A DNA stretch of 64,000 bases from Dehalococcoidia bacterium (GTDB lineage: Bacteria > Chloroflexota > Dehalococcoidia > Lucifugimonadales > UBA2985): the NCBI GenBank assembly GCA_965221925.1, contig OZ244924.1, positions 328,989 through 392,988 of the forward strand. Reading direction: 5' to 3'. A program made the translations under genes and the position numbers. The notes beneath the pieces are model-generated. The model searched no databases. It worked only from the letters and a program-made list of their open reading frames with translations, and had not been told where the DNA came from. Shown here one piece after another: positions 9,951 through 29,369 of this stretch; the first letter of the stretch is position 1; each line of letters starts with the position of its first letter.

Positions 9951-12900
9951 GTGGAATCTCTAGCTGTCGCTTCCCCTTCGAGTGTCCCCATGTCCTTTGC
10001 CCAGAAGTCCTACGCCAAAATACCGCGGGTGCTGGACGTCCCCAACCTGATACAGCTGCAGACCACCTCCTTTGACTGGTTCATAGGCGATTGTCTGAAG
10101 TCCCTGTTCCAGGAAATATCGCCCATACAGGATTTCACCGGCGGCAGGTTTGAGTTGTCCTTCCTGGATCACGAGTTCCACCAACCCAAGTTCACGGAGG
10201 AGGAGTGCAGAGCAAGGGAGAAGACCTTTGCGGCATCCCTTTACATTACTGCGCGTCTTCTGATCAAGGAGACCGGGGAGATGAAGGAGATGAAGCTCTT
10301 CATGGGCGACGTTCCCATGATGACGTCTCAGGGCACCTTCGTAATTAACGGTGTAGAGCGGGTTGTGGTTAGTCAGTTGGTAAGGTCTCCGGGGATATAC
10401 CTGACCGTGGAGAGGGACGTAGCCAGCGATAGAGACCTGTGCGCGGGCAAGCTCATCCCCTACAGGGGCGCATGGCTGGAGTTTGAGACCAGCAACAAGG
10501 ATGTCCTGTCGGTGAAGGTCGACCGCAAGCGGAAGGCGCCCCTTACCACCCTTCTCCGCGCTCTGGGACTGGTGGGCGAGAGTGAGCTGTTGACCCTGTT
10601 CCAGGACGTGGACAACGACATCAACCACCAGTTCATCAGGGCTACGCTGGAGCGGGACACCCACGTCCAGAGCCAGGACGAGGCCCTTCTGGAGTTCTAC
10701 CGTCGTCTGAGACCCGGCGAGCCGCCAAACGTGGAGAACGCTCGAAGCCTCATGGATAACCTGTTCTACAACGCTCGCCGCTATGACCTGGGCAAGGTGG
10801 GACGCTACAAGCTGAACCGCAGATTGGGCATAGACGTCAGTCCGTCTGAGCAGACCCTCACCAAGGAAGACCTGATAGCCGTGGTCAGGAAGATGATACT
10901 GGTGAACAACGGCCATGAGCCTCCGGACGACATCGACCACCTGGGAAATCGAAGGGTAAGAGCGGTTGGAGAGCTCCTTCAGAACGCCCTGCGAGTGGGG
11001 TTCCTCCGCATGGAGCGCGTTATCAGAGAGAGAATGACAACCCAGCCCAACCCTACCGAGGTTACCCCCGCTACACTGATAAACGTACGCCCGGTAGTGG
11101 CGGCCGTCAGGGAGTTCTTTGGAGGTTCGCAGCTCTCCCAGTTCATGGACCAGACCAACCCCCTGGCAGAACTGACACACAAACGGCGCCTTTCCGCCCT
11201 GGGGCCCGGCGGCCTCTCCAGGGAGCGGGCGGGGTTTGACGTGCGGGACGTGCACCACTCCCACTACGGCCGCATATGCCCCATAGAGACCCCGGAAGGC
11301 CCGAACATCGGCCTCTTGGGCTCTCTGGCTACCTACGCAAGGACCAACGAGTTCGGCTTTATCGAGACGCCCTACCGCAGAGTTCTGCGGGAGGCGCCAA
11401 ACAGCTACCCGGACCTCCGGGGACGCACCATCACCGAGGCCGTGGTAAATGACAGTGGCAAGGTGGTCGCCAAGAGCGGACAGACCGTGACGGGCGCCTT
11501 GGCGAAGCGTCTCGCCGCCATGCCTCCGTGTACCATCAAGGTGAAGCCCTTTGCCTCCACGGACCCGGAGGACATCGTCTACCTGGCCGCCGACGAGGAA
11601 GAGCGGTACCCCATAGCCCAGGCCAACTCTCCCCTGGATGACAAGGACCAGTTCACTACCGAGAAGGTTGAGATAAGACGGGGCGAGGTCTTCTCGCTGG
11701 AGCCGCCTGAGAACGTGTCCTACATGGATATATCTCCCATACAGATAGTAAGCGTGTCCGCAGCGCTGATCCCCTTCCTGGAGCACGATGACGCCAACAG
11801 GGCCCTCATGGGGTCCAACATGCAGCGTCAGGCCGTGCCTCTACTTCGCACGGAAGCCCCGCTGGTGGGCACGGGCATGGAGGGCAGAGTAGCTATGGAC
11901 AGCGGTCAGGTGGTCATATCTCGCACCGCCGGCGTCGTCAGCAGCGTATCGGGGAACAGCATTGAGGTCACAGACGTGGATCGCAAGGCGCATAAGTACC
12001 CGCTGATCAAGTTCCTGAGAAGCAACCAGGGCACCTGCATCACCCAGCGCGCCATTGTCACCAAAGGCGACGTGGTGCAGGCCGGGCAGCCACTGGCCGA
12101 TAGCTCCTCTACAGACCACGGCGAGTTGGCCCTGGGGCAGAACGTCCTGGTCGCCTTTATGAGCTGGGAGGGATACAACTTCGAGGATGCCATAATCGTC
12201 AGTGAGGACCTCCTGCGCAAGGACAAGTTCACGTCCGTGCACATAGAGAAGTACGAGGTGGAGGCACGGGACACCAAGCTGGGCGCGGAGGAGATCACGC
12301 GGGACATCTCCAACGTGGGAGAGGACGGGCTACGGAACCTGGACGAGGTCGGAGTGATCTATCCGGGCGCAGAGGTGGGACCGGGGGACATCCTGGTTGG
12401 GAAGATCACCCCCAAGGGTGAGACGGAGCTCACCGCCGAGGAGAAGCTGCTCAGGGCCATCTTCGGAGAGAAGGCCAGGGACGTTAGGGATACCTCCCTG
12501 AGAGTCCCCCACGGCGAAAGAGGCAAGGTAATAGACGTGAAGGTGCTCTCCCGGGAGAACAAGGACGAGCTCCAGCCGGGGGTGAATACCCTGGTGCGGG
12601 TGTGGATTGCCCAGACCAGAAAGATCGCAGCAGGCGACAAGATGGCGGGCCGCCACGGCAATAAGGGCGTCATCTCCCGCGTGCTCCCCGCGGCCGACAT
12701 GCCGTACCTTGCCGATGGGACCCCTGTGGACATCATACTTAACCCAATTGGTGTGCCCTCCAGGATGAACCTGGGACAGCTGTTTGAGACCCACCTTGGC
12801 ATGGCAGCCCATAGCCTCGGTATGAGAGTGGCAACCCCCGTCTTCGACGGAGCGGAGGACGGAGCCATTGAGGACGGACTTGCCAAGGCGTGGATGATAA

Positions 12901-13889
12901 GGCAGTCCGGGGCCAGAGACCCCCACTCGCCAAACGGCGACTCCCCTCCAAATATGGAGATAGTGAGGGAGTGGCTGGCCGGGAGAGGGTATGACCCGAA
13001 CCTGGTCCTGAGCGACGCGCATCCGGGTGAGGCCCGGCGGGCGTGTCTCAGGATTTGGCTCTCTGAGGAGATTGGGCTGGACATCTCTCAGATGTCGGAC
13101 GAGGACATTTCACGGGAGACCATTCGTCTGAGCAAGGAGGCCGGCAAGTCGGCTCCAACTCTGGGCAAGAGCATCCTGTATGACGGGCAGTCCGGCGAAC
13201 CCTTCTACCAGCCGGTCACGGTGGGCTTCATCTACATGATGAAACTCATTCACCTGGTGGAGGATAAGATACACGCCAGGTCAACAGGCCCCTACTCCCT
13301 GATAACACAGCAGCCCCTGGGAGGCAAGGCCCAGTTCGGAGGACAGCGGTTTGGCGAGATGGAGGTGTGGGCGCTGGAATCCTACAGCGCTGCTTACAAC
13401 CTCCAGGAGATGCTCACGGTCAAGTCCGACGACGTGATAGGACGGGTCAAGACCTACGAGGCAATTGTGAAGGGAGAGGACGTGGTCCAGCCGGGAGTCC
13501 CGGAGTCCTTCCACGTTCTGGTGAAAGAGCTGCAGAGCCTGGGCCTCTCGGTGGAGTTGCTCCATCAGGATGATGAACCACTTGTACTCCAGGACCCCGC
13601 GGAAGGGGTCACCCCGGAAGGTGAAAACCTGGATGAGGTTGGCGGCATTGACTGGGTGATGGACGTAGACGGGACAGACCTTGTGGACGGCGCTGATCTG
13701 GTCAATGGGATGGACCTTGTGGGCGGTACGGACCTGGTCGATGGGACTGACCTTGTGGGCGGTACGGACCTGGTCGATGGGGCTGACCTTGTGGACAGCG
13801 CCGACGAAAGCGATGCAGACACAGTCGGTGAAACAGACGGAACAAACGAAACAGAGGAGGTGGAGAATGCCTCAGACCATGGAATTTAA
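9951..13889 (+). CDS. rpoB: DNA-directed RNA polymerase subunit beta, with repeat-containing acidic C-terminal extension
   Basis: Canonical RpoB blocks throughout (e.g. [45 protein letters not shown]). Start is either GTG 9951 (AGGAG upstream) or ATG 9990 (MSFAQKSY). Confidence 0.95.
13671..13796 (+). repeat. 7 x 18-nt coding tandem repeat (hexapeptide G-x-D-L-V-D/G/N) in the rpoB 3' end
   Basis: [43 protein letters not shown] 32-nt stretch is duplicated exactly (13713-13744 and 13749-13780). Confidence 0.9.
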
Positions 13890-16800
13890 CGCTATCCGCA
13901 TCTCCATTGCTTCCCCGGAGCAGGTGAAATCCTGGTCTTACGGAGAGGTAACCAAGCCGGAGACCATCAACTACCGTACCTTAAGGCCGGAGAAGGACGG
14001 GCTTTTCTGCGAGAGGATCTTCGGTCCCACAAAGGACTGGGAGTGCTTCTGCGGAAAGTACAAGAAGATACGCTACAAGGGCGTGATCTGCGACAGGTGC
14101 GGCGTGGAAGTGGCGCGCTCCAAGGTCAGGCGAGAGCGGATGGCCCACATCCAGCTCGCCGCTCCCGTAGCCCACGTCTGGTTCTCCAAGGGAATCCCCA
14201 GCCGCCTGGGGCTTCTCCTGGACCTCTCACCCAGGAACCTGGAAAGGGTCCTGTACTTCGCCAAGTACATCATCACCCATATAGACGAGGAAAAACGCTC
14301 CCGCTTCCTCCAGTCCCTCAAGGACTTCCTGGACCAGGAGGAAGAGGCGATTGACCAATCGCAGGCCCTGTCTCCAGAGGAGTCCACAGAGGAGTCCACC
14401 CCGGCTCCTACCAATGGAGTCGCAGCCAATGGGCATCAGGTCAACTCGGTGGCGGAAAGGGAGAAGCGGATAGAGGAGGCCCAGGCCCAGATAGACCAGC
14501 TGGAAGGACTGCGGACAATGGACCTCTTGACGGAAGCCACCTATCGCGAGCTGCGAGACAAGTACGGGGACATCTTCAAGGCCGACATGGGCGCGGAAGG
14601 CATCTTGGCTATCTTACAGCAGATGGACCTTGAGGCGCTCAAGCTGCATCTGCACGAGGAAATAGACGCAACCTCCGGGCAGCGCCGCAAGAAATCTATA
14701 AAGCGCCTCCGCGTTGTGGAGTCTCTGATAAAGAGCGATAACGAGCCTCAATGGATGATCCTGTCCGTGCTGCCCGTGCTGCCGCCGGACCTGCGGCCCA
14801 TGGTGCAGCTGGACGGAGGGCGGTTTGCCACCAGCGACCTCAACGACCTCTACCGGCGAGTCATAAACCGCAACAACAGGCTGAAGCGTTTGCTGGAGCT
14901 GGGCGCCCCGGAGATAATCGTCCGCAACGAGAAGAGGATGCTTCAGGAAGCCGTGGACGCCCTCATAGATAACGGGCGTGTTGGCAAAGCCATCTCCGGG
15001 AGCCATAACCACAAGCTCAAGTCTCTGGCAGACCTCCTCCGAGGCAAGCAGGGAAGGTTCCGGCAGAACTTGCTGGGCAAGAGGGTGGACTACAGCGGGC
15101 GTTCCGTTATAGTGGCGGGGCCTGAGCTGAAGCTCAACCAGTGCGGCCTTCCCAAGAGGATGGCCTTGGAGCTGTTCAAGCCCTTTGTGATGAATCGCCT
15201 GATCCTGGACGGCCACGTCCACAATATAAAGAGCGCTAAGCGTATGGTGGAGCGGGTGAGGCCGGAGGTGTGGGACATTCTGGAAGAGGTGATAGCCAAG
15301 AGGCCCGTGCTTCTCAACCGCGCGCCCACGCTGCACCGGCTGGGAATTCAGGCCTTTGACCCGGTGCTTGTGGAGGGGAGCGCTATCAAGATCCACCCCC
15401 TGGTCTGCACGGCTTTCAACGCCGACTACGACGGCGACCAGATGGCAGTGCACGTTCCCCTGTCCAGAGAGGCTGTCCAGGAAGCCAGACAGCTCATGCT
15501 CAGCACGCAGAACATGCTCTCGCCCAGCTCCGGAGAGCCGATTGTGGCCCCCACCCTTGACATCGTTTTCGGCTGCTACCATCTGACCATGGAGACCCCT
15601 GGCGCCGCGGGGGACGGCTCCAGGTACAACGACTTTAATGAGGCCAGAACGGCCTATGAGAATGGCGTGGTGGGCCTGAGAGCTCCAATTCTCATAAAGC
15701 AGTCCAACAACGGCTCCGGCGTTACCTGGTTCAAGACCACCGTGGGACGCATCATCTTCAACGAAGTCCTGCCTGAGGGCATCAGCTTCCGCAACCAGAT
15801 AATGGACAAGAACCTGCTCAAGGATCTGGCCGCGGAGTGCTACCGCACCCAGGGGAACAAGGTGACCGCAGACGTGCTGGACAGGATCAAGCGGCTGGGC
15901 TTCCACTACGCCGGACAGTCCGGCACCACAATAGCCATCAACGACATTGAGGTGCCCGCTCAGAAGAAATCGCTGATAGATGGCGCCACCAGCAAGATCG
16001 ACAGCCTCGAAGAGCAGTTCCAGAGAGGACTCATCACCGAGGACGAACGATACAATACGGCCGTTCAGATCTGGACGGAAACCAACGACCGTATGACCAA
16101 GGTCATTGAGGAACAGCTGCCCACCTACGGCGGGGTCTACCTCATGGCTATCTCCGGGGCCAAGGGCAACATAGCCCAGATAAAACAGATGGCCGGTATG
16201 CGTGGACTGATGAGCAACCCGCGTGGCCGCATTATCGAGCTGCCCATCAAGTCCAGCTTCCGAGAGGGACTCAGCGTCCTGGAGTACTTCATATCCACCC
16301 ACGGAGCGCGCAAGGGTCTGGCGGACACGGCGCTGCGGACCGCCGATAGCGGTTACCTAACTCGCCGCTTGATCGACGTATCGCAGGAGGTAATCATCCT
16401 GGAGTACGATTGCGGCACCGCTATGGGCATTACGCTGGAATCGCATCCCGACAAGCCCCTGGAAGCCCCATTTGACACCCGCATCGTGGGTCGCACCGCC
16501 GCCAGCCCCGTGGCAGACCTCGCCACGGGCGAGATCATCGTGGAGCGCGATCAAGAGATAAACGAGGACCTTGCGGCAAAGATCGTCGCCCTGGATATCG
16601 GCGAGGTACGCGTACGCTCCGCTCTCAACTGCGAGTCTCGCAGCGGAATGTGCAGCCTGTGCTACGGACGCAACCCGGCTACAGGCAAGCAAGCCATATC
16701 CGGAGAAGCGGTGGGCGTCATGGCGGCTCAGAGCATTGGAGAGCCGGGGACACAGCTGACTATGAGGACGTTTCATACCGGCGGCATTGCCGGCGTGGAT

Positions 16801-17832
16801 ATTACCAGCGGCCTTCCCAGGGTTGAGGAGCTCTTTGAGGCCCGCTCACCCAAGGGACAGGCCGCCCTGGTGGAGATCGACGGTGTGGTGGAGAGGATCG
16901 AAGACGGAGAAGAGCGGCGGATAAGGGTGGCCAGCACCGATGAGTACTCGGAGGAATACGCTCTGCCCACCGGCTACCTGCCCCTGGTGGCGGAGGGCGA
17001 ATGGGTAGAGGTGGGCGCCACGCTGGCCGGCCCTGAGCAGGAATCGCCCCAAAGCGACGGGGAGAGCGTTCCCCAACCCCTCCCGTTGACGGCCAGAATC
17101 GCCGGGCGGACCCGGATTACCGACAACGCCATCACCCTGGTTTGGGAGGAGCGGGATGAGCGGGAGTACCTGATACCACCGGCCTCCCATGTGCTGGTGG
17201 AGGACGGCGCCACGGTGAACGCCGGCGACCCCATTACCGCAGGCCCCCTCAACCCGCAGGACATACTGCGCATACTGGGTCGGGAGGCGGTGCAGCAGTA
17301 CCTGCTGGACGAAGTGCAGAGGGTCTACCGCTCCCAGGGCGTAAACATCAACGACAAGCACATTGAGGTGATAGTGCGGCAGATGCTCAAGAAGGTTAGG
17401 GTGGACTCCCCCGGCGATACCGACATCCTCCCAGGCGAGTTGGTGGACAGGATAAGCTACGAAGACTCAAACGCCAAGGTGCTGGCCGAAGGTGGTGAAC
17501 CGGCGATGGCATCGCCGGCCCTGCTGGGTATCACAAGAGCGTCACTGAGCACGGACAGCTTCCTGGCCGCTGCCTCCTTCCAGGAGACGGCGCGGGTCCT
17601 TACGGAAAGCAGCATGAATGGGGCCGTGGACCACCTGAGGGGGCTGAAGGAGAACGTCATCATTGGCCGCCTCATCCCAGCCAATCTCAACTCCTCTCAA
17701 GAGGGTAGGGACCGCCTGGGGCTGGGTGGGGTAGGCGCGGACGGGGACGCTCCGGGCGCTTCTCAGCTGACCCTGGAGTCAGAGGCCATCTCTCACGTTC
17801 TGGAGTCTGCGCCCGGCGACGTGGAGTTCTGA
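13867..17832 (+). CDS. rpoC: DNA-directed RNA polymerase subunit beta'
   Basis: Start set at [20 protein letters not shown] (ATG 13867), which overlaps the rpoB end by 23 nt. Zn-binding CxC...Cxx[10 protein letters not shown] catalytic motif and conserved C-terminal blocks. Confidence 0.95.
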
Positions 17833-17881: not shown

Positions 17882-17958
17882 GGGCGGTTAGCTCAGCTGG
17901 TTAGAGCGCTACCTCGACACGGTAGAGGTCAGTGGTTCGAGTCCACTACCGCCCACCA
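17882..17958 (+). tRNA. tRNA-Val (anticodon GAC)
   Basis: Acceptor GGGCGGT/ACCGCCC, D-arm GCTCAGCTGGTTAGAGC, anticodon arm CTACC-TCGACAC-GGTAG, T-arm AGTGG-TTCGAGT-CCACT, encoded CCA. Confidence 0.9.
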
Positions 17959-19116
17959 GAATGTACCGAACTGCGAACTCGGCCGTTCAGGGCGATCTCT
18001 GCGGCGTCGGCTCCCCCTATGGGAGAGTCCTCCGGCGTGGGTATGGAGTAGACGATGGCGGCCCTGCCGGGCTTGACCGCGACCTCCTTGACGAAAGAGT
18101 GGACGAAGGCCCTGGTCTCGGTAAGCTCGCTGGTCTTGAGGAACTCGCTCATGTCCTCGGCGAAGGTGGCGATGGTGTCGGCGCTGTCCAGGAACTGCCG
18201 CCGCTCTGCGAGCATCGCTCTCGCCTCCTGTGCGGCGACCTCCAGCTTCTCCTTGCGCTCCCGGTGCTCCCTGATGCGCTCGGAGGCGTCGGCCATCTCG
18301 ATGTCGGTGGTCTCGATGACCTGCCAAATGCGACCCAAGCGCCGCTTGACCTCCTCAAGCTCCTCCTCGATGGTCTGAAGCCGCTGGCGCTGCTCGTGGG
18401 CCACCCCGTCCATCTCCTCGTCCAGCAGCTTCACCAGGTCTCGGATGTTGGACTCGGTGAGGACGTTGGCCCGAATCTCGTCTACGATGAGCTTCTCGAA
18501 GGACTTGGCGTTGAGCCTGGGGGTCTTGCAGGTCCCGCTGCCCCGCTTGAGGAGGGAGTGGCAGACGTAGTAGGTGTACCTGCCGCTCTTGGCCTCGGCG
18601 GCGGTCATGGCCTTGCCGCAGGTCTCGCACTTGAGCAAACCGCTGAGCAGGTAGGGGCTGGAAGCGCGTCGGGGGTTCACCTTCTTGGGGGCGCGTGACC
18701 CCAGCAGCTTCTTGACCTTCCGGAACTCCCCCTTGGAGACGATGGCGGGGTGTGCGTTCTCGACGCGCACCGGCGGCGCGCCGTCCTTGGCGGTGGTTCC
18801 CCAGACCAGGGTGCCCGTGTAGGCTTCGTTGAGCAGCACGTTGTGGATGGTGGTCTTCAGCCACCTCTTGCCGTTGGTGGTGGGGATGCCCTCGGAGTTG
18901 AGGGGTCTTGGTCACGTCGAGGATGCTGCTGCCTTGGAGTGCCATATCGAAGATGCGCCGTACCACGGCGTCGGCGGGCGGGTCAAGCTCCAGCTTGGGG
19001 CGCTTCTTCGTCCCGTCCTGGACGTAGACCTTCCGGTAGCCGTAGGGGGCGAAGGTGGTGACCCAGAAGCCTCTGGAAGCGGCCTCCCGCATCCCTCTCG
19101 TGACCTCTTGGGCAAG
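17946..19116 (-). pseudogene. large serine recombinase, C-terminal ~390 codons (split by insertion, plus a 1-nt frameshift near 18900)
   Basis: Two frames join as ...SSILDVTKT / LNSEGIPTTNGKRW.... Recombinase domain (FAPYGYRK), zinc ribbon (CETCGKAM...YYVC) and coiled coil. The last 13 nt overlap tRNA-Val. The N-terminal domain lies at 37602-38022. Confidence 0.8.
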
Positions 19117-19292: not shown

Positions 19293-21245
19293 TCAGCGTA
19301 TCTTGCCTGTGGCGCAATGAGCACGGACAGGGCAGTCCCCGCACTTTGGGGCGCGAGCCGTACACGTCAACGCACCGAGGTCCAGTAGCGCCTGATTCCA
19401 TTCGGCGGTCGCGCCCTTGGGTCCAGCCAACTGGTGCAAGTAGAGCCGTTGGCGCCAAGGTCTAGAGGTCCCCCCCATCAACCTTCGTGCAATCCTCGTA
19501 GTGTTTGTGTCCATTAGGATACTGCGACGTCCAAAGGCAAAACAGAGCACGGCGGATGCAATGTAATCCCCCACACCTGGTATGGCTACCAACTCCTGCC
19601 AGTTATCGGGCACATCGCCATCCAACCTCTCCTGCACAAATGTTGCAGCAGAAGTGATGTTGTCAGAGCGCCAGCGAAGACCCAACGTGGACAGTAAGGG
19701 TTGCAGCGTTTTCGAGTTATCCAGGAATTCTTGAGGGGTCCGCCCCAAGGCGAGCAATTCTTCTCCGATCTTGGCCACCTGCGGTGCCCTTGTTCGGTGG
19801 AGGCACATCTCAACCAACAGATGTTGCCAGGGAGTCAGGGATGAACTCCTCCAGGGGAATTCCCGCCCACTGTGGTTGAACCACCTTGCCAAGGCATCTC
19901 GAAAGTGGCCGTCAGTTGTTTCATCGCTAGAGCCAGGATTCGCCAGACTCTCGCTGGCCGAGTGAGCGTTGAGCGTCCGCAAGAGGGACGAGGCAATGGC
20001 CGATGCCAGCATGGGAGGAACCGCATTTCCGATCTGCTGGAACCTGGTGGACGGAGGCCCAGCGAAGCGGAACCTGTCCGGAAAAGTCTGAATCCTGGCG
20101 GCTTCCCGAATGGAGAGAGTGCGGTGCTCGCGGGGATGAATGTACCAGTACCCATCCTTTGCGATGTGAGCCGTAATAGTCCTCGACAGATCATTGAATG
20201 AAAGCCTGAGGTACTTGTCGTCAAATATGTCTGACCTGTACCGCCTGAGACGTTCGGGGGTGTCCAGGTACGTGTCTCCAGGTTTCATGTGACTGTAAAT
20301 CTCAGCGTCGTCCGGGCGAACAGCTCTCGTAATGTGGTCACGGATCAAATAGGACTCCTTGCCCCTCAAACCCCTTCGCAACAGCCTGGCTAGTGTGGTT
20401 GTCGGCGGGCCATCGTACAGCAGGGCCTCCTCACGTGAATCCGCCTGAACGACGGGAAGGTCTCCTATGGCCTGGCCAACCGTTGGCCGCCTCCCCATGG
20501 GCTTAGGCCACTCAAACTGACCATTCCCTTTGATTCCGACCACAAAGAGCCGAGAGCGGTGCTGTGGAACTCGGTACTTCCACGCCTCCAGTACATCCAC
20601 GTGCACCCTGTATCCTCGATGCTTCAATTCATCGAGCAATGCGATTAGCAGTGCCCCACCCTGGGACTGGGTGAAATTCGGTACATTTTCGAAGAGAATT
20701 ATACTGGGCTCCAGTCGGTCAGCAATAGCAAAAAAGCTCTGCCAAAGGTCGGCCCTCTCGTCACGAGCTTGGCGGTGCCCCTTCCTCACTAGGTCGCCGA
20801 TCTTTGAGGCTCCGGCTATTGAGAAGGGCTGACAGGGAGGTCCGCCTGCTACTAGATCGACCTTGCCGATACCCCACTCGTTCAGTTGGCTGATGAATCC
20901 GTCGGGTTTGGAGAGGTCCCCCGTCCACGTGAGGCCCTGGATGTTGGCGGCATACGTCTCGGTTGCCACTCGGTCAGAGTCAGCTGCGGCGACTACAGAG
21001 AAACCTGAGTCCTCTAGACCAAGGCTCAGGCCGCCCGCTCCGCAGAACAGATCAACGGCCCAAGGGCGAGGACGGCCTTTCAACCACGCCCCAACCGAGT
21101 CAGGGTCAGTGGGGTCGGGAGAACTTGGGTGCGGATCGAGCGCTATCCGGGTCCCACGGCGAACTTTCACGCCGTAACGCGACTGTCCCTCGGCAGAGTC
21201 GAGAGGAATTCCCAATGCCTCGTCCACTTTGGAATGACCAACCAT
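19293..21245 (-). CDS. DNA (cytosine-5)-methyltransferase fused to a C-terminal HhH-GPD (EndoIII/MutY/Mig-like) glycosylase domain with 4Fe-4S motif
   Basis: C5-MTase motifs: DLFCGAGGLSLG (I), GGPPCQPFS (IV), ENVPNF (VI), QIGNAVPP (X). C-terminal half: GVGDYIASAVL hairpin, MDTN aspartate, and CTARAPKCGDCPVRAHC, which is C-x6-C-x2-C-x5-C. Confidence 0.85.
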   Translation of the reverse strand: MVGHSKVDEALGIPLDSAEGQSRYGVKVRRGTRIALDPHPSSPDPTDPDSVGAWLKGRPRPWAVDLFCGAGGLSLGLEDSGFSVVAAADSDRVATETYAANIQGLTWTGDLSKPDGFISQLNEWGIGKVDLVAGGPPCQPFSIAGASKIGDLVRKGHRQARDERADLWQSFFAIADRLEPSIILFENVPNFTQSQGGALLIALLDELKHRGYRVHVDVLEAWKYRVPQHRSRLFVVGIKGNGQFEWPKPMGRRPTVGQAIGDLPVVQADSREEALLYDGPPTTTLARLLRRGLRGKESYLIRDHITRAVRPDDAEIYSHMKPGDTYLDTPERLRRYRSDIFDDKYLRLSFNDLSRTITAHIAKDGYWYIHPREHRTLSIREAARIQTFPDRFRFAGPPSTRFQQIGNAVPPMLASAIASSLLRTLNAHSASESLANPGSSDETTDGHFRDALARWFNHSGREFPWRSSSLTPWQHLLVEMCLHRTRAPQVAKIGEELLALGRTPQEFLDNSKTLQPLLSTLGLRWRSDNITSAATFVQERLDGDVPDNWQELVAIPGVGDYIASAVLCFAFGRRSILMDTNTTRIARRLMGGTSRPWRQRLYLHQLAGPKGATAEWNQALLDLGALTCTARAPKCGDCPVRAHCATGKIR

Positions 21246-23293
21246 CAGTTGGACTCCACCGAGAAACCGAGTGCAGCCGCCCTGTCAAGAATCTCGACTG
21301 CCCGTTCGGCATCCTGGGGTTTGATGCTATTCCCCCTCTGCAAGGCTCTGCCAACCCGTACGGCGGTCTGCCGCTGGCTGGCATCGAGCGAGCCTGTTTC
21401 CACGCCCCAACTGGCGAGCATCGTCCAGCCCTCTGAGGTCACCTCAACCAACCTCTTTAGATTCCCCACATGGTCTGAGGAGAGGTTCGACATTGAGCGC
21501 TTCTGTTCCCTGCGGGTTGCTTCTACATTGAGCAGTTCGGTCGAAATGCGGTCGATGGGCACCCGAGAAGCAGAGTTGCGGACAGCATCCCAGCATGCTT
21601 CGGCCTTGCACCATTCGGTGATGTTACGAGCGGTTGGAGGGTTGGTGATGATCCGATGCACATCATGGGAGAGTTCCGCTATCACCTCCTGCAGATTCGG
21701 CGTTAGGGTCTGCTCCCTCCAAATCCTGTCTAGGTCGATTCTCTGACTCGTGGCATTCGAGAGCAGGGCGATCGTGTAAGTGACGATGTTGGCCCTGTAT
21801 CCACCAAGGTTCTGCCGCTGCACGATGCGCTCGGTCGTTCGGAACAGAATCGCCTTGGCCACCAACCGTTCGAAATGGGTTCGTTCGACCTCCATCTGGT
21901 CGTGTTCCCCAAGTCTAATCATGTAGTCCGAGAAGTTCTTCTGCGCCCCCCGGCTCACGACATGAGGCAACTGCCCCCAGGTGTTCTCAAACTTCGCAAG
22001 GTCGGTCTTTGTGAACCGCTGCCCTGTGGGATGTTCAGCCAAGAAGGCCCTGCGCCTGGCAGGTGTCGTCTGAGACGCCCTGGCGTCCTGATACTGCCCG
22101 CGAGCGCGCTCGTAGAACCATCTTGTTTGCCTCTGCGACCCACCTACCGGAGGGGCCCACATGGTTCTTGAGAGCTCTTCAAGGCGAACATGGAATGGAT
22201 CGTTTGCTGAGAAATCAGCCTCAGAGATGCGATTCTGCGAGTTGGCGTAACGTGAGACGTTTCTGACCAACTCGTCATGGACATCGCCAGCGTCCACCTC
22301 TATCAGCTTAGCTGCTACATAGATCTGAGAGAGGTCGGCACGTCCCCGGCTGGCAGCCAACAGCGAGGCCGTTGTCTGTCCACCATTCACTATCTGTAGA
22401 CCTTCCAGCCTCGCAACACCAACACCCTCTCCCGTATCAATCAGCTCCACCTCTTCGGCGGTTAGCGTAATCCCGTTGTTGTAGGCGAGGAACCTCTCAG
22501 GCTCTGTATTGATGGTGTCGCGGATACTGCGGTTCACCTTCCCACGAGCCTGGAGGAATGATCTGACGTTCGTCTCCAGCAACCGGGGCCCGTGATCCGC
22601 ATAGATACCGCGCAAGACCGCCCCCGGAATGAGCAGCAGGAATGCCCGATACCCATCCTGGGCATTGTCGGCTTGGAGGCATGGAAGCGGCTCCCCGTAG
22701 CGTTCCATCAAGTCAATCGAAATGGCATCTCGCCGACGGCCTGAGGTGCTCTCGCGATGAAGCCTGACGACATCCCACAGGGAGCAAGTGACAGCAATGT
22801 CCCCGAGGTAATAATCGTCTGGCACTCTCTCTACAGTGGTCCTGCCATCGGTGATCACACACAGCTTTGCCTTGGCCAGATTTGTTCTGGAGCCATGGAT
22901 GTGTGCCGCCATATCGAACACTGGGGACGATTCCTCCAGTTCTACGTATCTGCCGTCCAGGCACCATTCGAGGAAGGAGCGCAGCCTTCTGAAAGCGACT
23001 TCAACCCTCTGCCTCGTAACCGTCTCTGGTGGAGTTGAATTGGTGTGAATGCTGAGGAACAGCTCGACCCGCGCCTCATCCTCATCCACTGAGTATCCGC
23101 TGACCTCCATCCCACGCGCCCTGTGGTAACAGACCAGAGGATCCTCGAATTCGCCTGCCTCGGAGAGCAGGTCGAACACGGTCTGGGTGAACAGATCAGA
23201 GAGCATCATGTCCTGCTCAACAGACTCGGCCTGTGCGAGCACGTCTTGGCGCAGGTTCTCTGCGAATTCCTCAATTGAGTGCTGGGTGGTCAT
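21245..23293 (-). CDS. AIPR (abortive-infection phage-resistance) family protein
   Basis: 682 aa. The central block ETNVRSFLQARGKVNRSIRDTINTEPERFLAYNNGITLTAEEVE...IVNGGQTTASL matches the AIPR family as I recall it. Its stop overlaps the MTase start (TGATG). Confidence 0.7.
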   Translation of the reverse strand: MTTQHSIEEFAENLRQDVLAQAESVEQDMMLSDLFTQTVFDLLSEAGEFEDPLVCYHRARGMEVSGYSVDEDEARVELFLSIHTNSTPPETVTRQRVEVAFRRLRSFLEWCLDGRYVELEESSPVFDMAAHIHGSRTNLAKAKLCVITDGRTTVERVPDDYYLGDIAVTCSLWDVVRLHRESTSGRRRDAISIDLMERYGEPLPCLQADNAQDGYRAFLLLIPGAVLRGIYADHGPRLLETNVRSFLQARGKVNRSIRDTINTEPERFLAYNNGITLTAEEVELIDTGEGVGVARLEGLQIVNGGQTTASLLAASRGRADLSQIYVAAKLIEVDAGDVHDELVRNVSRYANSQNRISEADFSANDPFHVRLEELSRTMWAPPVGGSQRQTRWFYERARGQYQDARASQTTPARRRAFLAEHPTGQRFTKTDLAKFENTWGQLPHVVSRGAQKNFSDYMIRLGEHDQMEVERTHFERLVAKAILFRTTERIVQRQNLGGYRANIVTYTIALLSNATSQRIDLDRIWREQTLTPNLQEVIAELSHDVHRIITNPPTARNITEWCKAEACWDAVRNSASRVPIDRISTELLNVEATRREQKRSMSNLSSDHVGNLKRLVEVTSEGWTMLASWGVETGSLDASQRQTAVRVGRALQRGNSIKPQDAERAVEILDRAAALGFSVESN

Positions 23294-24315
23294 ACCAAAC
23301 CCTCAAGGAGTTTATGGGGCCGTTCCTCCGCCATTCGGAAGGAGCCACAAGAGGCCGTTGACACCAAGTACCGCACGTCACTTACTCCGGGCTGGAGTTC
23401 ACCAGACACGATTCTTGGGAACCCTTCGCCAACCCGGAATGCGTACAGGGACCGAAGGCTGTATCCGATTTCGGAGTACGTGCCTGAGTCATCGCTGAGA
23501 TAACCAGACAGGTCCAGTCTGTGATCCAACAGGTGCAAGCAGCCATTTGCCGAGGCCATTGAACGGACGGAGCCAACCAAGTCAGGCAGCGTCTCGCCAT
23601 GGCCCACTCTGCCATCCAGGGACAGTCCGAGGAGCAACAACGCAACATCGTCCGGAACCTCCAGCTGCCGTTCACTGGAGATCGCCAGACGATCCAGACT
23701 GGCCGCCGTGCTGGTCTTCACCTCAATGCACGTGGCCCCTAGGTGGAAGTCCTGGTCAGAACCCATTGGGCCTCGCCATCCATTCACGGCAGCAGTCATG
23801 CCCACTGCTGGCACGACGACTTCTCTGAGCACCCACAGTTCGCCCCACAATCCCTGTTGTGTCTCCTGGCTCAACCCTCGTGGTCCGAGTCTCCTGAGAA
23901 GCTGTTGCCAGTCTGAGAGCCGCGCAAGAAATCGCCTTAAGCCCTCCCCTTCATCCTCGGGTTGCTCAGCAGCTTCAACCAGATCCCGCACCAAGAGGTC
24001 AAAGATGTCCCGGTGTTCCGAGTCGATCAGGGACAGCACCACCTCAGCCTCGTTGTCTTCCGCCTCCCTGGGGAGGACGCGCACAGTCAATCCACGCGAG
24101 TCCGGAACCTCTGGCAGCCCCGATGCCGAGTTTGCCGCAATGCGGAGTATGAGCATGCGATTCCTAGTGGGAATCTCCAAACCGAGAAATACGTCTCGCC
24201 GTCCGGAAGGCAGCAACCGACGCTGCACCCTTCCGGGAACATCGGCGATGCGGGTGTCCGCCTCCAAGTGACTCCACACCTCTACTAGATTCAACTCTCC
24301 AACTCCTCCTGCCAA
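23290..24315 (-). CDS. PD-(D/E)XK motif protein
   Basis: 341 aa. GLWGELWVL...SDQDFHLGATCIEVKT is a D...E-x-K nuclease-type core. ATGA overlap with the AIPR gene. Confidence 0.6.
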   Translation of the reverse strand: MAGGVGELNLVEVWSHLEADTRIADVPGRVQRRLLPSGRRDVFLGLEIPTRNRMLILRIAANSASGLPEVPDSRGLTVRVLPREAEDNEAEVVLSLIDSEHRDIFDLLVRDLVEAAEQPEDEGEGLRRFLARLSDWQQLLRRLGPRGLSQETQQGLWGELWVLREVVVPAVGMTAAVNGWRGPMGSDQDFHLGATCIEVKTSTAASLDRLAISSERQLEVPDDVALLLLGLSLDGRVGHGETLPDLVGSVRSMASANGCLHLLDHRLDLSGYLSDDSGTYSEIGYSLRSLYAFRVGEGFPRIVSGELQPGVSDVRYLVSTASCGSFRMAEERPHKLLEGLV

Positions 24316-27038
24316 TAGACGGAGTTCACAACGTACTCGACAGGCGTATCGATCTCGGCAGCGGGGAAGCTCGCAGCAAATCCCACAAATGGCACCCCAT
24401 CGTCGTCTACTTGCTCAAGCGGGTATATCAGGAGCAGTCCATTCTTAGGATCCCGGACCCGACGAATATGAGGCCCGCTGGGTCTTCTGGGTTCAGCGAA
24501 GTGTCGGCTACCCTCTCGGTCATTCCGGTGCTGCTGCACGGTTTGCTCCAATGCTAGCTTCCACTGTTCGTCGGTCAGGTCGATCACTTCGTCGGTGGGG
24601 CTGACAAGCCGGCGAATTCGATATACCTCTGTCTGGTCCAGACTGTCTGCTAGATAGGCCGCTCTCCGAAGTGGATAGACTTCGTGGCCCCCCAGTACTC
24701 TGGCCTGCCCACCGCTCTGGTTTGAGATGAGGGCCACCGTCCAACTCTCCAGGCCGCCCAGGGGGTTCTGCAAGTGGATGTACCTTGCCAGATAATCACC
24801 ACGAGCCTTACGAGACCCCGGATGTACACGGATGTCGACCAATAGCTCCGCAACGTTCTCACCAAGCACGTCACGCCAGACACGGTTGCCCGTTGAGAGC
24901 GGGGCTGTAGATCCGAGGGAGGCGATGAAGCGATTGAACCGCTCGTGATTCCTGCCATTCACAGCAGCGGCACGGTCGAACGAAATTGTCTCGCTGATTC
25001 CTGCGGAATACGAGACGGTCATCCTCATTCCATTGCGCATCTTGTTGGCGGCTGTGATGACAAGACCCGCGGGATGACTCCTCACTCTCAGACCAAACTC
25101 ACTGGGGGTCATCCCCCTGTCGGCCATCAGGTCAAACTCCTGCCTGAGCTCGTCGGTGGCCATCGTAATATGGCTGTAGAATTCCCGCAGTTCATCCGTT
25201 GTATAGAGCCGACAGAGGTCCACATAGCCGGGTCTGTAACCGAACCACCTACCCATCTGGAGGAGGGTGTCATACATGCGGGAGGCGCGTAGGTAGTAGC
25301 TGACGGACAAGCCCTCAAGTGTGAGACCACGAGACAGCTTGTCGCCGCCGATTGCTATCGCACTCAACCCGTCGGGGTGGTCCCAGTAATCAAGGGCGTC
25401 CTTCGCGGCACCATTGATTACCTTCACCTGAATCCTCTGTGAGGATTCAACCAGTTTCGACTGAACAGCGTCCCATGATACGTCGGTGCAGCCGACCATC
25501 AGATTGGAGTAAAGCCTCCTCACGGATCGGGAGCTCGGCTCGAAGTCCTCAAACCACATGTCCCGCAGCTGGTCAAGAATGGGGTAGGGAGAAGCGCCGT
25601 CTCCATACCTGATGCGATTCTGTAGGTCCCTCAGCTCAAACCTAACGAGGTCGGCCACCTGACTCTGCACGTCAACGAACCTGGTGACATGAATCAGCAT
25701 TGAGTTGTGCTGTCCCTCGTGCCCACGAGCGGCCCTGACAGCACAGGCGAGGATGAAGGCCCGCATAGCACTGGTGAGTGAATTGGGGAGTTCGTCAATG
25801 GTCAAACTGCTCCTATGGACGTTGGGAATCTGGTCCTCGTGGTCACTGACGACCCGGACGAGTGGCAGAGCAGGAATCGGCCCCACGTCATCATCATCCC
25901 TGGCCGGTAGGCCGAACACCTTGGTTGGCCCGACGTGATTACTTGGAACCGGCAGGTTGATTAGGAAATCACGTGGAAACAAATCCTGACCAAATCTGCC
26001 CGCCTCTTGGTCGGGATAGATGAAGATGTTTGCAAATGGTGTAGCGGTGTACCCGATATAGACACTCTGCTCAAACGCGTTCAGGAGTTCACGAATTCTC
26101 CCGTTGATAACGGTTGGGTCTTCATCATCACCAGTAGTAGCGGGCCTGGTATTGACGGATGCGAAGTCAGCCTCGTCGTCGATCACCAATGTGGGAGTGT
26201 TTGGTATGGACTCTTGAGGTCCCAAGAGGCTCAGGGACTTAGCCCAACGCGTCAGGTTTCGCAGGACCGAACCGTTCTTCTTGACCACCATGATCACCGG
26301 ATCACCTCCCAGTCTGACATTGAACTGGTTGGCGATTCTGAGATTGAAGTCTCCCGTCTCCTCAGCATTCGTTGAGGGGATGGCCCTGAGCAGAGGTTCA
26401 CCAATCAGCGTTCCCACGCCGACACGCTTGTTACTCGTGTCCAATGCCAGGTTGAGTCTCGTATCCCATCCGAGAAAGCCCTCGTCAAAGCGCAACTGGG
26501 TCTGGGCACGAAGGCTGTTGGTCATGCCAGTCAGCACCACGATGAATTTGTAGCCGGAGTCCGCCGCCTTGCAGATCAACTCGATATAGTTGGACGTCTT
26601 GCCAGACTGCACCTCCCCTACGACCATCCCTCGTCGGTCCCATGCGCCTGGCCTAGCAGGGTCCTCGATGAGCTCGAGGATGCGGTCTGTGAGGTCATCT
26701 GATCGCTGGAGTGTCGGGAGCGCCCAGCCCTTCCTTTCCTTCAGGAACCTCTGATAGCGCCTCGTAAAGCTCCAGCCAATCGAAGCCCTGCGGTCAGGGA
26801 GCCACGGAATGTGATCGGTACTGTCGTCCGTAAGGGTCGAGGCGGACCCGACAACCACATTCAGGTTCGCCTCCAACTCCCTGACGAGCGCGTCGACATC
26901 GATCTCTGCGCTGGGTGCCTGGGCCTTCACTGCTTGAACAGCGTTCTCAGCGGCACTCCTGACTGCCGCTTCGTCAGGAGGAGCACCCACACCCAGCAGG
27001 TTGAGAGCTATGATCCTGGCTGTCTCCCAGTCACTCAA
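24291..27038 (-). CDS. Z1 domain protein (P-loop / DEAD-like ATPase N-terminal half)
   Basis: 915 aa. Walker A VVGEVQSGKTSNY, Walker B/DEAD-like LVIDDEADFASV, and a long C-terminal Z1-like region. Confidence 0.7.
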   Translation of the reverse strand: MSDWETARIIALNLLGVGAPPDEAAVRSAAENAVQAVKAQAPSAEIDVDALVRELEANLNVVVGSASTLTDDSTDHIPWLPDRRASIGWSFTRRYQRFLKERKGWALPTLQRSDDLTDRILELIEDPARPGAWDRRGMVVGEVQSGKTSNYIELICKAADSGYKFIVVLTGMTNSLRAQTQLRFDEGFLGWDTRLNLALDTSNKRVGVGTLIGEPLLRAIPSTNAEETGDFNLRIANQFNVRLGGDPVIMVVKKNGSVLRNLTRWAKSLSLLGPQESIPNTPTLVIDDEADFASVNTRPATTGDDEDPTVINGRIRELLNAFEQSVYIGYTATPFANIFIYPDQEAGRFGQDLFPRDFLINLPVPSNHVGPTKVFGLPARDDDDVGPIPALPLVRVVSDHEDQIPNVHRSSLTIDELPNSLTSAMRAFILACAVRAARGHEGQHNSMLIHVTRFVDVQSQVADLVRFELRDLQNRIRYGDGASPYPILDQLRDMWFEDFEPSSRSVRRLYSNLMVGCTDVSWDAVQSKLVESSQRIQVKVINGAAKDALDYWDHPDGLSAIAIGGDKLSRGLTLEGLSVSYYLRASRMYDTLLQMGRWFGYRPGYVDLCRLYTTDELREFYSHITMATDELRQEFDLMADRGMTPSEFGLRVRSHPAGLVITAANKMRNGMRMTVSYSAGISETISFDRAAAVNGRNHERFNRFIASLGSTAPLSTGNRVWRDVLGENVAELLVDIRVHPGSRKARGDYLARYIHLQNPLGGLESWTVALISNQSGGQARVLGGHEVYPLRRAAYLADSLDQTEVYRIRRLVSPTDEVIDLTDEQWKLALEQTVQQHRNDREGSRHFAEPRRPSGPHIRRVRDPKNGLLLIYPLEQVDDDGVPFVGFAASFPAAEIDTPVEYVVNSVYWQEELES

Positions 27039-28611
27039 CTGCCATCTCCTTCAGCAAAGCATCCACAGTTGGTTCCACCAATTCAAAGCGGTCACCAATT
27101 GCCTCAGTAGAGTCCAATCGGGCGAGAGCCTCGGGATGGGCCATCCCAGTGTTCGTGAAGGCCGTGTAGAGAGCACGAATCAGCTGTATTATCTCCCTGT
27201 CTCCAGCCGACTCGAAGGGCTGACTCTGCGATTCGTCGCCCTCGGCCATATCAACCCATATCTGCTGCACGGGAACGTACTCCTCGACCAAGCGCAGGAT
27301 TTGCTGCAACTTCGCGGAATCAATGGATGCGGCCTCCAATGCCTCCTTGACAAGCGGATGGGCACGGTTGATGACATATGACACCTTGTTCCCCCTGACA
27401 TGCCGCTGCCATACGAAGACAGGGCTCTTCCTGGCCGTTCGTGCAAGTGACTTGCCGCGATGTCGATAGACGCTAACGGCTCTCTTGCGCACCGCCTGAG
27501 CGACACGGCGAAGACCATCTCTGTACCGCAATGGGGGGAGGGCTTTCGACTTCCGAACATCGATGTCCCACTCATGATCGGAGGCGTTGGAAAGGTCGAG
27601 TTGGATACGGGCCAGCTTGTAGTGTTCTTCCTTCACGAATCCCAGCCCAAGCCAATCGCCTGCGAGAAGAAGCCGTCGGTTTCGATAGACGTAGAAGCCC
27701 TGCTGAGCGTTCCACCCAGCTGGGCCACCTGCCTCTCGGTGTTTCTCACCGGAGAGCCGGGAATGGTGTGGGAGTACGTAAGGTATGACAGCCAATGAGT
27801 CGCCGGAATTCCCCAACACCTCGGTTGGCAGTCGCTGTGTTGCAGCTTCGTTCGAGAGGAAAGGGTCCCATGGCTTGACCATCTGACCATTGAGCCATAT
27901 CGAGAGAGGATTCCGTTCTGTCATGAAGCGATGGAACACCATCGCAATGTGTTCCTCCACCCCCCTTAGAGCGTTGTGGAAGTGTCGCTGTGTTAGTGTA
28001 TTGTCAGCCCCAGCTTTACCCACCAACCTGTCAAGCTTGTTCCAGATAACAAGGGTCCCGTTGTTCAGCCCACACAGCCGATCCATATGGTGTTCAGCAA
28101 TGGCTCCAACCGGGACTTTCAGCAATTGCCAGTCGCCGGCAGATGCCAAGTGGTCTAGGTCCCACCTCCTGATATGTACTCCGGTGTCGTTCGCAGTGTG
28201 CGTTGCAACGGTCAGTGACCTTGCCTGCGAAATCGAAGCCGTCTTCAAGCCCAAACCGTAACGCCCCAAGTCGTAGGGGTCACGTTGTTCCTGTGGACTC
28301 TTAGAACCGATTCTCATCGCGTCGATCAGGCTCAACTCAGCCATCCCAGATCCGTCGTCAAGAATAGACACCCAGGAGTCCGCGCCGGCCCAGTGAAAGT
28401 CTAGCCAGACATTCCGGGCACCGGCTGTGATGCTGTTGTCTATTAGGTCAGATATGGCGTCCGGCAGGGAGTATCCGGTCGCTCTCAGCGACTCCATGAG
28501 GACATCGGCCTTGGGCGCAACGACATCAAAAGAGCCTTGATCCACAGCGCCAGAGGGAACTACAATCATGGGACTCCCCAATAGTGACTGTTTATCGAAA
28601 TCACAGGCCAC
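27031..28611 (-). CDS. GHKL-superfamily (MORC/MutL-like, HATPase_c_3-type) ATPase
   Basis: Bergerat-fold motifs: DLIDNSITAGA (N box), ILDDGSGM (G1), GRYGLGLKTAS (G2). 8-nt overlap with the Z1 gene. Confidence 0.75.
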   Translation of the reverse strand: MACDFDKQSLLGSPMIVVPSGAVDQGSFDVVAPKADVLMESLRATGYSLPDAISDLIDNSITAGARNVWLDFHWAGADSWVSILDDGSGMAELSLIDAMRIGSKSPQEQRDPYDLGRYGLGLKTASISQARSLTVATHTANDTGVHIRRWDLDHLASAGDWQLLKVPVGAIAEHHMDRLCGLNNGTLVIWNKLDRLVGKAGADNTLTQRHFHNALRGVEEHIAMVFHRFMTERNPLSIWLNGQMVKPWDPFLSNEAATQRLPTEVLGNSGDSLAVIPYVLPHHSRLSGEKHREAGGPAGWNAQQGFYVYRNRRLLLAGDWLGLGFVKEEHYKLARIQLDLSNASDHEWDIDVRKSKALPPLRYRDGLRRVAQAVRKRAVSVYRHRGKSLARTARKSPVFVWQRHVRGNKVSYVINRAHPLVKEALEAASIDSAKLQQILRLVEEYVPVQQIWVDMAEGDESQSQPFESAGDREIIQLIRALYTAFTNTGMAHPEALARLDSTEAIGDRFELVEPTVDALLKEMAVE

Positions 28612-28632: not shown

Positions 28633-29070
28633 TCACTCACGGAACTCCCCTAACCAGCGTACGTTGTCGATGCTTGGGCTTGCCGTCCGATAGAATCGCT
28701 CGTCGGCGGTCCACAGCTCGCAACCGAGGTTCTCGGCAAGCGCCAGATAGTGGGCGTCGTAGGCGGCGCCCTGACCGAATCGACTTGCCATCTCCAACGC
28801 CTTTCCGTGGAGATTCCACGGCTGATGCAACTCAATCTGAGAGGTGAGCAGGTTTCCGATAAGGTCAACCGCCCCCTCAACGCTCAACTCCCCTCGGGTC
28901 ACTCTCTTGTGGAGCGCGTTGGATACCTCGAACGGCAGCAGGTGGGGAGCGGCTGGAGTAACGTCCTCGTTATGCCACACCCGAAGAAGCGCCAGAGCCT
29001 TGTCAGTGTGCTCCTCCCTCACCAACCACTTGAAGGCAAGGCTGGCGTCTACAACCACGAAGCCGCTCAA
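28633..29070 (-). CDS. vapC: PIN-domain toxin (VapC-like)
   Basis: 145 aa. N-terminal VVDASLAFKWL acidic residue, later AYDAHYLALAE and LWTADERF, which is the PIN acidic quartet pattern. 4-nt overlap with the upstream antitoxin gene. Confidence 0.75.
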   Translation of the reverse strand: MSGFVVVDASLAFKWLVREEHTDKALALLRVWHNEDVTPAAPHLLPFEVSNALHKRVTRGELSVEGAVDLIGNLLTSQIELHQPWNLHGKALEMASRFGQGAAYDAHYLALAENLGCELWTADERFYRTASPSIDNVRWLGEFRE

Positions 29071-29369
29071 GCTATCCCCTCCAACTGGGCGTCCCTAGCC
29101 TCCCGCGCTTCCCGGATGAACTCGGCCCCGTTGCTGGGAAGCACCTTGTCACCAAAGTACTTCTTTTGGAGTTCCTCGAACCGCTCGGCGTCAGACCAAC
29201 TGGACACGGGACTGCCGAAGCCCTGTGTCTCGTCTTGCGCCAACTCTTTGTCTATGGCTGTATAGCAGTAATGGCGCATGGTCACTCCCTTGAGGGCGGC
29301 AACCACCTTCAGCCTGCGCTGAAAGGTTGGCTCCAAATCCAATGTGAGCCTCTTCTTCTTGACTTCCAT
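29067..29369 (-). CDS. antitoxin, ribbon-helix-helix-like N-terminus (VapB-like)
   Basis: 100 aa. KKRLTLDLEPTFQRRLKVVAALKGVTMRHYCYTAI resembles an RHH beta-strand plus helices. Genetically coupled to vapC. Confidence 0.6.
   Translation of the reverse strand: MEVKKKRLTLDLEPTFQRRLKVVAALKGVTMRHYCYTAIDKELAQDETQGFGSPVSSWSDAERFEELQKKYFGDKVLPSNGAEFIREAREARDAQLEGIA

Follow-up and report, generated by a model that had tools for sequence, protein, structure and literature searches.

Every 5-methylcytosine (5mC) methyltransferase carries a mutational cost in the form of C-to-T changes at its own sites. To our knowledge two remedies are on record, namely the Vsr endonuclease of bacteria and, on a single archaeal plasmid, a mig gene separate from the methylase gene. 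Mig.MthI of Methanothermobacter is encoded beside the GGCC methylase M.MthTI, and the pairing of a methylase with T:G repair, be it Dcm with Vsr or M.MthTI with Mig, is textbook knowledge. The subject of this study is a gene of a Dehalococcoidia bacterium (GenBank assembly GCA_965221925.1) that encodes a C5-cytosine methyltransferase and a predicted Mig-like DNA glycosylase as a single protein. The gene lies in a stretch of 64,000 nucleotides of contig OZ244924.1 (positions 328,989 to 392,988, forward strand), referred to below as the window, and it is the last gene of an operon with similarity to the mzaABCDE defence system. The fused glycosylase probably repairs deaminated 5mC at sites methylated by its own N-terminal half, where it would take the place of Vsr. 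It would then amount to a third remedy, a repair glycosylase welded to the methylase that is widespread, poorly annotated and moves between defence systems in several phyla.

The role of Mig in the repair of 5mC deamination has been described (PMC2714593, PMC1636421), and Mig enzymes evolved against this type of damage according to one of these papers (PMC1636421). Vsr is associated with Dcm in cassettes that also comprise GHKL, helicase and AIPR genes (Iyer et al. 2008, PMC2292703). The excerpts of Miller et al. (2022, PMC9523054) considered here present a predicted 'type II' system composed of Z1, DUF4420, Dcm, AIPR and MORC proteins, and describe the canonical MzaA as sigma-factor-like rather than as a methylase. 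A two-domain 'Nth-Dcm' protein of Deinococcus swuensis was flagged as novel, with 'only a few' examples and no function assigned (Lim et al. 2019, PMC6300522). A literature search for methylase-glycosylase fusions in connection with Vsr or Mig returned only this remark on Nth-Dcm and the cassette papers. Within the literature searched there seems to be no earlier description of how widespread the fusion is, of its occurrence in defence cassettes, be they MZA-like or other, or of the reciprocity between it and vsr.

Architecture and conservation of the fusion protein

The fusion gene occupies positions 19293..21245 of the window on the minus strand and encodes 650 amino acids plus a stop codon from an ATG start. 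An earlier note, made from the sequence alone, had placed a single 650-amino acid open reading frame (ORF) at exactly this span with the strand unstated, and all the motifs that it quoted recur in the translation, which contains no internal stops. These are the methylase motifs I (DLFCGAGG), IV (GGPPCQPFS), VI (ENVPNF) and X (QIGNAVPP), which are completed to the full set by motif VIII (QHRSRLF), and in the C-terminal half GVGDYIASAVL, MDTN and CTARAPKCGDCPVRAHC, the last of which forms a C-x6-C-x2-C-x5-C loop. The ATG and the stop codon (TGA) of the AIPR gene upstream have one base in common (TGATG). The G+C content of the gene is 57.9% as compared to 63.8% for the window, and a scan for promoters and terminators near its 3' end returned nothing above chance.

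The N-terminal half is a complete C5-cytosine methyltransferase. Residues 64-421 (19983..21056, minus strand) match PF00145 with an E-value of 2.8e-59 and 201.6 bits against a Pfam cut-off of 22, and the dcm model TIGR00675 scores 182.3 bits, above its cut-off of 100.65. Among PDB sequences this half matches DNMT1, M.HaeIII and M.HhaI. The same three enzymes are returned by a fold search with the full-length model, which is dominated by the methylase and uninformative on the C-terminus; the C-terminal fold was searched with the isolated glycosylase domain. The full-length AlphaFold model has a mean predicted local distance difference test (pLDDT) score of 77 and comprises a confident methylase core and a confident all-helical C-terminal domain. 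Between them lies a linker of about 15 residues (approximately 431-445; 19911..19955, minus strand) that is delimited by AlphaFold disorder, with pLDDT values below 50 for residues 431-443.

The fusion is conserved well beyond the window. More than 120 protein clusters with 65-94% identity span its full length, and a genome scan with one genome per species yielded 486 relatives, 80 of which were retrieved for locus counts. The locus surveys reported here rest on 80 loci per scan, as compared to 486 genome matches and more than 548 Z1 loci overall. Both halves are encoded in one uninterrupted frame in 73 of the 80 species-representative genomes, while the remaining seven are apparently interrupted copies or pseudogenes. 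Most hosts are metagenome-assembled genomes (MAGs) of Dehalococcoidia, one of which (L002) is about 96% identical to the window, and they further include Solirubrobacterales, Dormibacteria, Acidimicrobiales, a Tessaracoccus isolate and a Trueperaceae MAG. The possibility that an error of sequencing or assembly had merged two separate genes in the window could draw on the short 'standalone' glycosylase homologues of 170-250 amino acids that turn up in protein databases. The short forms that were examined (L081-L083), however, lie on long-read metagenome contigs with only 3x-15x coverage on which the adjoining genes are broken too, and these close homologues are treated as frameshift artefacts. 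No stop or frameshift separates the two halves at the junction that the earlier note had singled out for checking, and a two-gene origin is rejected on the basis of the cluster coverage and the genome-frame counts, which leaves an artefact in the window scarcely credible.

The C-terminal domain and its relationship to Mig

The C-terminal domain (residues 446-650; 19296..19910, minus strand) is a HhH-GPD glycosylase of the Mig/MutY type with a 4Fe-4S loop, as identified by phmmer and Foldseek. Two short Pfam motifs barely exceed their cut-offs. The helix-hairpin-helix motif PF00633 covers residues 540-569 including Tyr561 (19539..19628, minus strand) with 24.5 bits against 24, and EndIII_4Fe-2S (PF10576) covers residues 628-644 (19314..19364, minus strand) with 22.8 bits against 20.5. 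The latter corresponds to the loop C628-x6-C635-x2-C638-x5-C644, the four cysteines of which are invariant in 69 out of 69 aligned fusions. The protein terminates six residues past C644 and the C-terminal domain of MutY is absent. The Pfam HhH-GPD model itself, PF00730, does not report the glycosylase domain of the window protein, and this silence accounts for precomputed annotations and RefSeq naming such proteins plain 'DNA cytosine methyltransferase'. The precomputed Pfam lists of most relatives contain PF00145 alone, and hundreds of proteins annotated only as methylases carry an unrecognised glycosylase.

Residues 451-645 align end to end with Mig.MthI (PDB 1kea, recorded as 'possible G-T mismatch repair enzyme') in a phmmer search of PDB sequences (E-values of 3e-24 and 4.5e-25), followed by MutY catalytic domains (1e-20) and then endonuclease III (EndoIII, Nth). 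The isolated domain is modelled with a pLDDT of 94.4, and its best Foldseek match is again 1kea, a thermostable thymine-DNA glycosylase, with template modelling (TM) scores of 0.87 and 0.86 and a root mean square deviation of 2.4 Å over 219 columns. By fold, 1kea is followed by the catalytic domains of MutY and by EndoIII, with TM scores ranging from 0.80 to 0.87 across all three. Among the NCBIfam models the top match for the glycosylase half is mutY (TIGR01084) with 114 bits, far below its equivalog cut-off of 286.5, and the Nth model TIGR01083 scores 63.9 bits against a cut-off of 211.7. The HhH-GPD domain, catalytic aspartate and Fe-S loop that the earlier note had recognised are thus borne out by Pfam, by phmmer against PDB sequences and by the structural model with Foldseek, and the non-glycosylase fold that it had considered as a possible outcome did not emerge. 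In a search of 1.84 billion representatives, the closest relatives that are not fused have lengths of about 210-250 amino acids. They mostly bear the E-A-Y-D active-site signature and are not full-length MutY proteins; a long MutY-like tail is present in only 18 out of 145 of them.

Active-site residues and predicted substrate

HMMER and MAFFT alignments of the domain were read against a published residue analysis, in which F27, E42, R47, A50, Y126, D144 and L187 separate Mig from MutY (PMC2714593). The window protein has F463 at the first of these positions (Mig.MthI F27, leucine in Escherichia coli MutY), E479 at the second (E42, glutamate in MutY), R484 at the third (R47, glutamine in MutY), A487 at the fourth (A50, valine in MutY), Y561 at the fifth (Y126, serine in MutY), D579 at the sixth (D144, aspartate in MutY) and Q618 at the seventh (L187, glutamine in MutY). 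Six of the seven are Mig-like and Q618 alone is MutY-like, at a position where the closest relatives variously have L, Y, W, Q or F. The catalytic Asp579 is encoded at 19509..19511 (minus strand) and aligns with D144 of Mig and with D138 of both MutY and Nth. The valine that Ala487 replaces (Val45) is conserved across the MutY family (PMC2714593).

Tyr561 occupies the position of Mig Y126 and of EndoIII K120, and the presence of tyrosine in place of the Schiff-base lysine predicts a monofunctional glycosylase. A bifunctional lyase of the EndoIII type and a DEMETER-like excision of 5mC are both rejected on this ground. Identity with Nth itself is likewise dismissed, as Lys120 is lacking and TIGR01083 remains under its cut-off, and so is identity with bona fide MutY, given the score of TIGR01084, the absence of the C-terminal 8-oxoguanine (8-oxoG) recognition domain and the alanine at the Val45 position. 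Judging from the Mig-like residues, the short relatives with the E-A-Y-D signature and the missing MutY tail, the domain belongs to a Mig-like branch of the MutY/Mig group. Although the domains within the clade of the window protein are only 57-70% identical, E479, Y561, D579 and the residues of the pocket are strictly conserved among them, which points to selection on catalysis. The combination of Mig.MthI as best match in sequence and fold with Mig-like active-site residues supports T:G mismatches as the probable substrate.

Reciprocal relationship with vsr

Vsr was searched for with an iterated profile at the 80 fusion loci, where 'nearby' is defined as within 10 kb, and was found at 16 of them, with three of these genes verified by Pfam. 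In the window itself, a Vsr profile built from these 16 matches has no match at E ≤ 1 over the 64 kb. For 69 alignable fusions from different species, not including that of Synechococcus elongatus, the presence of vsr was compared with the state of the active site. None of the 51 fusions with an intact E-A-Y-D signature has vsr within 10 kb, as opposed to 14 of the 18 with a decayed signature (Fisher p 2e-11). The vsr-linked fusions have replaced A487 and F463 and have often lost Asp579, Tyr561 or both, yet the four cysteines persist. In a neighbour-joining tree they form two clades and a singleton (L041). The decayed fusions linked to vsr are those of loci L054-L061, L069 and L075-L079, in each of which the glycosylase part lies at approximately 11200-11900 of the locus, and further examples from metagenomes are found in L095 (17599-19683), L101 (10073-12064) and L109 (12661-14673).

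The reverse survey used an alignment of Z1 proteins as query against metagenome contigs. Vsr is present at 36 of the 56 Z1 loci that carry Dcm and is thus the usual partner in these related cassettes, while a glycosylase is present at six. Three of the six glycosylases are fused, and all of these are decayed and accompanied by vsr. The other three are intact and take the form of standalone or adjacent Mig-like ORFs beside methylases that lack a vsr gene of their own. One metagenomic locus (L130; 918-2949 and 10734-12661) encodes two C5 methylases; vsr precedes the first of the pair, and an intact standalone Mig-like ORF with the residues FERAYDW precedes its counterpart. The apparent trade-off amounts to a natural experiment on non-homologous replacement, in that the glycosylase decays where vsr is present and vsr is absent where the glycosylase is intact.

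Operon context and alternative partners

Five co-directional genes with overlapping stops and starts form the operon on the minus strand, and the fusion gene stands at its end. The operon begins with a GHKL (HATPase_c_3, MORC/MutL-like) ATPase that resembles MzaB (27031..28611), followed by a Z1-domain helicase-like protein resembling MzaC (24291..27038), a DUF4420 PD-(D/E)XK protein resembling MzaD (23290..24315) and, directly upstream of the fusion, an AIPR protein resembling MzaE (21245..23293; Pfam AIPR E-value of 4e-106). The four were assigned with Pfam, PADLOC and NCBIfam, and their presence matches the Dcm-Z1-AIPR cassette to which the earlier note had referred. PADLOC reports MzaB with an E-value of 3e-119, MzaC with 4.5e-201, MzaD with 2.6e-18 and MzaE with 2e-98; the NCBIfam scores for MzaB to MzaE (459, 719, 127 and 438) are all far under the equivalog cut-offs (850, 1500, 420 and 1050, respectively). 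A match to MzaA was not found in the window. A 472-amino acid protein with several helix-turn-helix (HTH) domains (29605-31023) was considered as MzaA and is unsupported, as it matches other HTH models only.

In the 80-locus survey the fusion follows MzaB to MzaE as in the window in eight close relatives, and in many other loci it stands ahead of a GHKL-Z1-DUF4420(-AIPR) set that is more divergent. At about 20 of the 80 loci GHKL, Z1, DUF4420 and AIPR are all absent within 10 kb. Here the neighbours include a large helicase with an MZB/DUF1998-type protein in a DISARM-like arrangement (L024 4606-11923), an AAA_13/metallo-beta-lactamase beta-CASP nuclease (L046 9950-14493) or a double-GHKL protein (L012 5673-11911), and a cassette with a DUF6339 protein constitutes a further partner set. 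The unrelated partner sets, of which there are at least four, indicate that the glycosylase follows the methylase and not a particular effector, and the fused module thus serves several different putative defence systems.

The DUF6339 cassette also illustrates that the two domains can be encoded separately. Among cultured organisms, it adjoins on a plasmid of the cyanobacterium Synechococcus elongatus IITB6 (L084 256-5820) a fused protein of 641 amino acids that is annotated only as 'DNA cytosine methyltransferase'. On the plasmid NZ_CP084091 of the haloarchaeon Halomicrobium urmianum (L086 5989-7750) the same uncharacterised three-gene cassette adjoins a separate methylase of 371 amino acids and a glycosylase of 211 amino acids that are 10 bp apart, the latter annotated as 'hypothetical protein'. 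On the Thermus thermophilus plasmid pTthSNM7-6d (L085 3879-5700) a Mig-like frame that bears no annotation comes directly after dcm, with an IS1634 transposase behind it. The occurrence of the same pair fused in some genomes and split in others is classic evidence of functional coupling.

Proposed function

It is proposed that the N-terminal methylase marks the host DNA for the co-transcribed GHKL-Z1-DUF4420-AIPR defence or restriction module. Spontaneous deamination would convert 5mC to thymine and generate T:G mismatches exactly at the methylated sites, and the monofunctional Mig-type glycosylase, tethered by the linker, would excise the thymine, and probably uracil too, opposite guanine. 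The host apurinic/apyrimidinic endonuclease, polymerase and ligase would then restore cytosine, which could be methylated again. The identities of the domains, their intact catalytic residues, the conservation of the fusion, its operon context and the exclusion of vsr are shown by the data, and from these we infer the T:G substrate, the biological role and the notion that tethering aims repair at the methylase's own sites. By this scheme the glycosylase would do the job of Vsr in most cassettes of this type. The earlier note had likewise suggested a Mig-like T:G repair function fused to the methylase, and this proposal, including the replacement of Vsr, draws support from the Mig-like residues, the similarity to the fold of 1kea, the exclusion of vsr and the split pairs.

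Several observations weigh against it. Q618 corresponds to the glutamine of E. coli MutY that contacts adenine (Q182) rather than to Leu187 of Mig, and the double mutation A50V/L187Q shifts the preference of Mig to A/G (PMC2714593), which makes the substrate less than certain from the residues. The best NCBIfam model is that of mutY, though far under its cut-off. The association with vsr reflects few independent events, in approximately three to four lineages, so that the Fisher p-value overstates the evidence. Lastly, the retention of a decayed but cluster-bearing domain in the vsr-linked fusions hints at a second, non-catalytic role, possibly also in the window protein.

The MutY-like features could alternatively mean that the domain excises adenine from A:G or A:8-oxoG mispairs, as MutY does, and has no relation to 5mC deamination, and to Q618 and the mutY model may be added that MutY catalytic domains are a close second by both sequence and fold. 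The low score of that model and the missing 8-oxoG recognition domain argue against this reading, as do Ala487 in the place of the MutY valine and the presence of F463 and R484, which are residues of the Mig methyl pocket. The excision of adenine would moreover have no rationale beside a cytosine methylase and would not account for the exclusion of vsr, and a MutY-like activity is considered rather improbable. The persistence of all four cysteines in fusions that have lost the catalytic aspartate or tyrosine might suggest a mainly non-catalytic Fe-S module that helps the methylase to find or hold DNA, but this would leave the strict conservation of E479, Y561, D579 and the pocket in the window clade unexplained and is very improbable as the principal function.

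The earlier note had offered as its alternative that the glycosylase acts on the DNA of invaders. In such a scheme bases would be excised from unmethylated or modified foreign DNA, and the abasic sites would either be toxic or recruit the GHKL, Z1, DUF4420 and AIPR proteins. Glycosylase-type restriction enzymes such as R.PabI do exist, the fusion gene closes a defence operon whose stop and start codons overlap, and the domain with its Fe-S cysteines is kept even alongside vsr. The same fused module is nevertheless found with unrelated partner sets and at loci devoid of all four cassette genes, and the cassette already encodes a PD-(D/E)XK nuclease. The exclusion of vsr by an intact signature is what would be expected of a repair equivalent and not of an effector, and the active-site residues are of the type found in mismatch-specific repair enzymes. 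An effector role is for these reasons judged unlikely. A related idea, regarded as quite unlikely, is that the tethered Fe-S glycosylase is a working part of immunity that creates abasic sites at the methylase target in unmethylated incoming DNA, or senses lesions through its cluster, with the resulting signal licensing the GHKL-Z1-DUF4420-AIPR machinery. If true, it would also explain the catalytically decayed and cluster-intact domains of the vsr-linked relatives. Repair of deaminated 5mC would be a neat but unsurprising role that does not overturn current views. A T:G glycosylase tethered to a methylase could also attract interest as a tool for base excision at chosen sites.

The surrounding island

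The operon is part of an apparent integrated mobile or defence island (17946-40159 of the window) that follows directly on rpoB-rpoC. Recombinases of the serine type are represented in it by a remnant truncated at the 5' end (17946-18839) and by a complete large enzyme (36025-37638). It further encodes a PIN toxin preceded by a small ORF (28633-29369), the multi-HTH protein mentioned above, a PDC-S02/YhcG-DUF1016 nuclease (34621-35844) and a Replic_Relax protein (38696-40159). Long ORFs of the island with no match in Pfam or PADLOC are found at 18355-19092 on the minus strand and at 31062-31703, 31938-33533 and 33690-34397 on the plus strand. The first of these overlaps the recombinase remnant in a different frame and may be spurious. 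At the border of the island, the ORFs of rpoB (9951-13889) and rpoC (13681-17832), both on the plus strand, overlap by about 200 nucleotides, and the real start of rpoC is probably downstream of the listed TTG.

Comparison with known systems

With MutY the domain shares the fold of the catalytic domain, the Fe-S loop and the glutamine at the Q182 position, and it differs in lacking the C-terminal 8-oxoG recognition domain and Val45 and in scoring under the equivalog cut-off. Nth-Dcm similarly unites a glycosylase of the EndoIII superfamily with Dcm in one polypeptide, although its name suggests the reverse domain order; the comparison is by description only. The 'only a few' examples of Nth-Dcm contrast with the fusion of Dcm to a C-terminal glycosylase in hundreds of genomes from several phyla.

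The operon resembles mzaABCDE in that homologues of MzaB, MzaC, MzaD and MzaE are encoded together, and differs from it in that all four are far under the NCBIfam cut-offs and that a match to MzaA is absent. Its composition of Z1, DUF4420, cytosine methylase, AIPR and MORC-like ATPase agrees with the 'type II' system as presented in the excerpts of Miller et al. (2022), which make no mention of a glycosylase half of the methylase, and it also matches the Dcm/Vsr/GHKL/helicase/AIPR neighbourhoods of Iyer et al. (2008). Like Dcm-Vsr, the fusion would provide a C5 methylase with a dedicated T:G repair enzyme in the same type of cassette. Vsr, however, is a PD-(D/E)XK-like endonuclease that nicks the strand, whereas the window protein is predicted to excise the base by means of a HhH-GPD Fe-S domain.

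The greatest number of shared features is seen with Mig.MthI, which has the same fold (TM 0.87), is the best sequence match and has in common the four-cysteine loop, the catalytic glutamate and aspartate, the tyrosine and the F/R/A pocket. It is also of the same size, has no extra C-terminal domain and is genetically tied to a C5 methylase. Mig.MthI is encoded by a separate gene, while the glycosylase of the window, which is about 31% identical to it and has glutamine at the position of L187, is covalently fused to its methylase. The hosts of the fusion are bacteria (Chloroflexota, Actinomycetota and others), and its partner in the window is an MZA-like cassette rather than a simple type II restriction enzyme.

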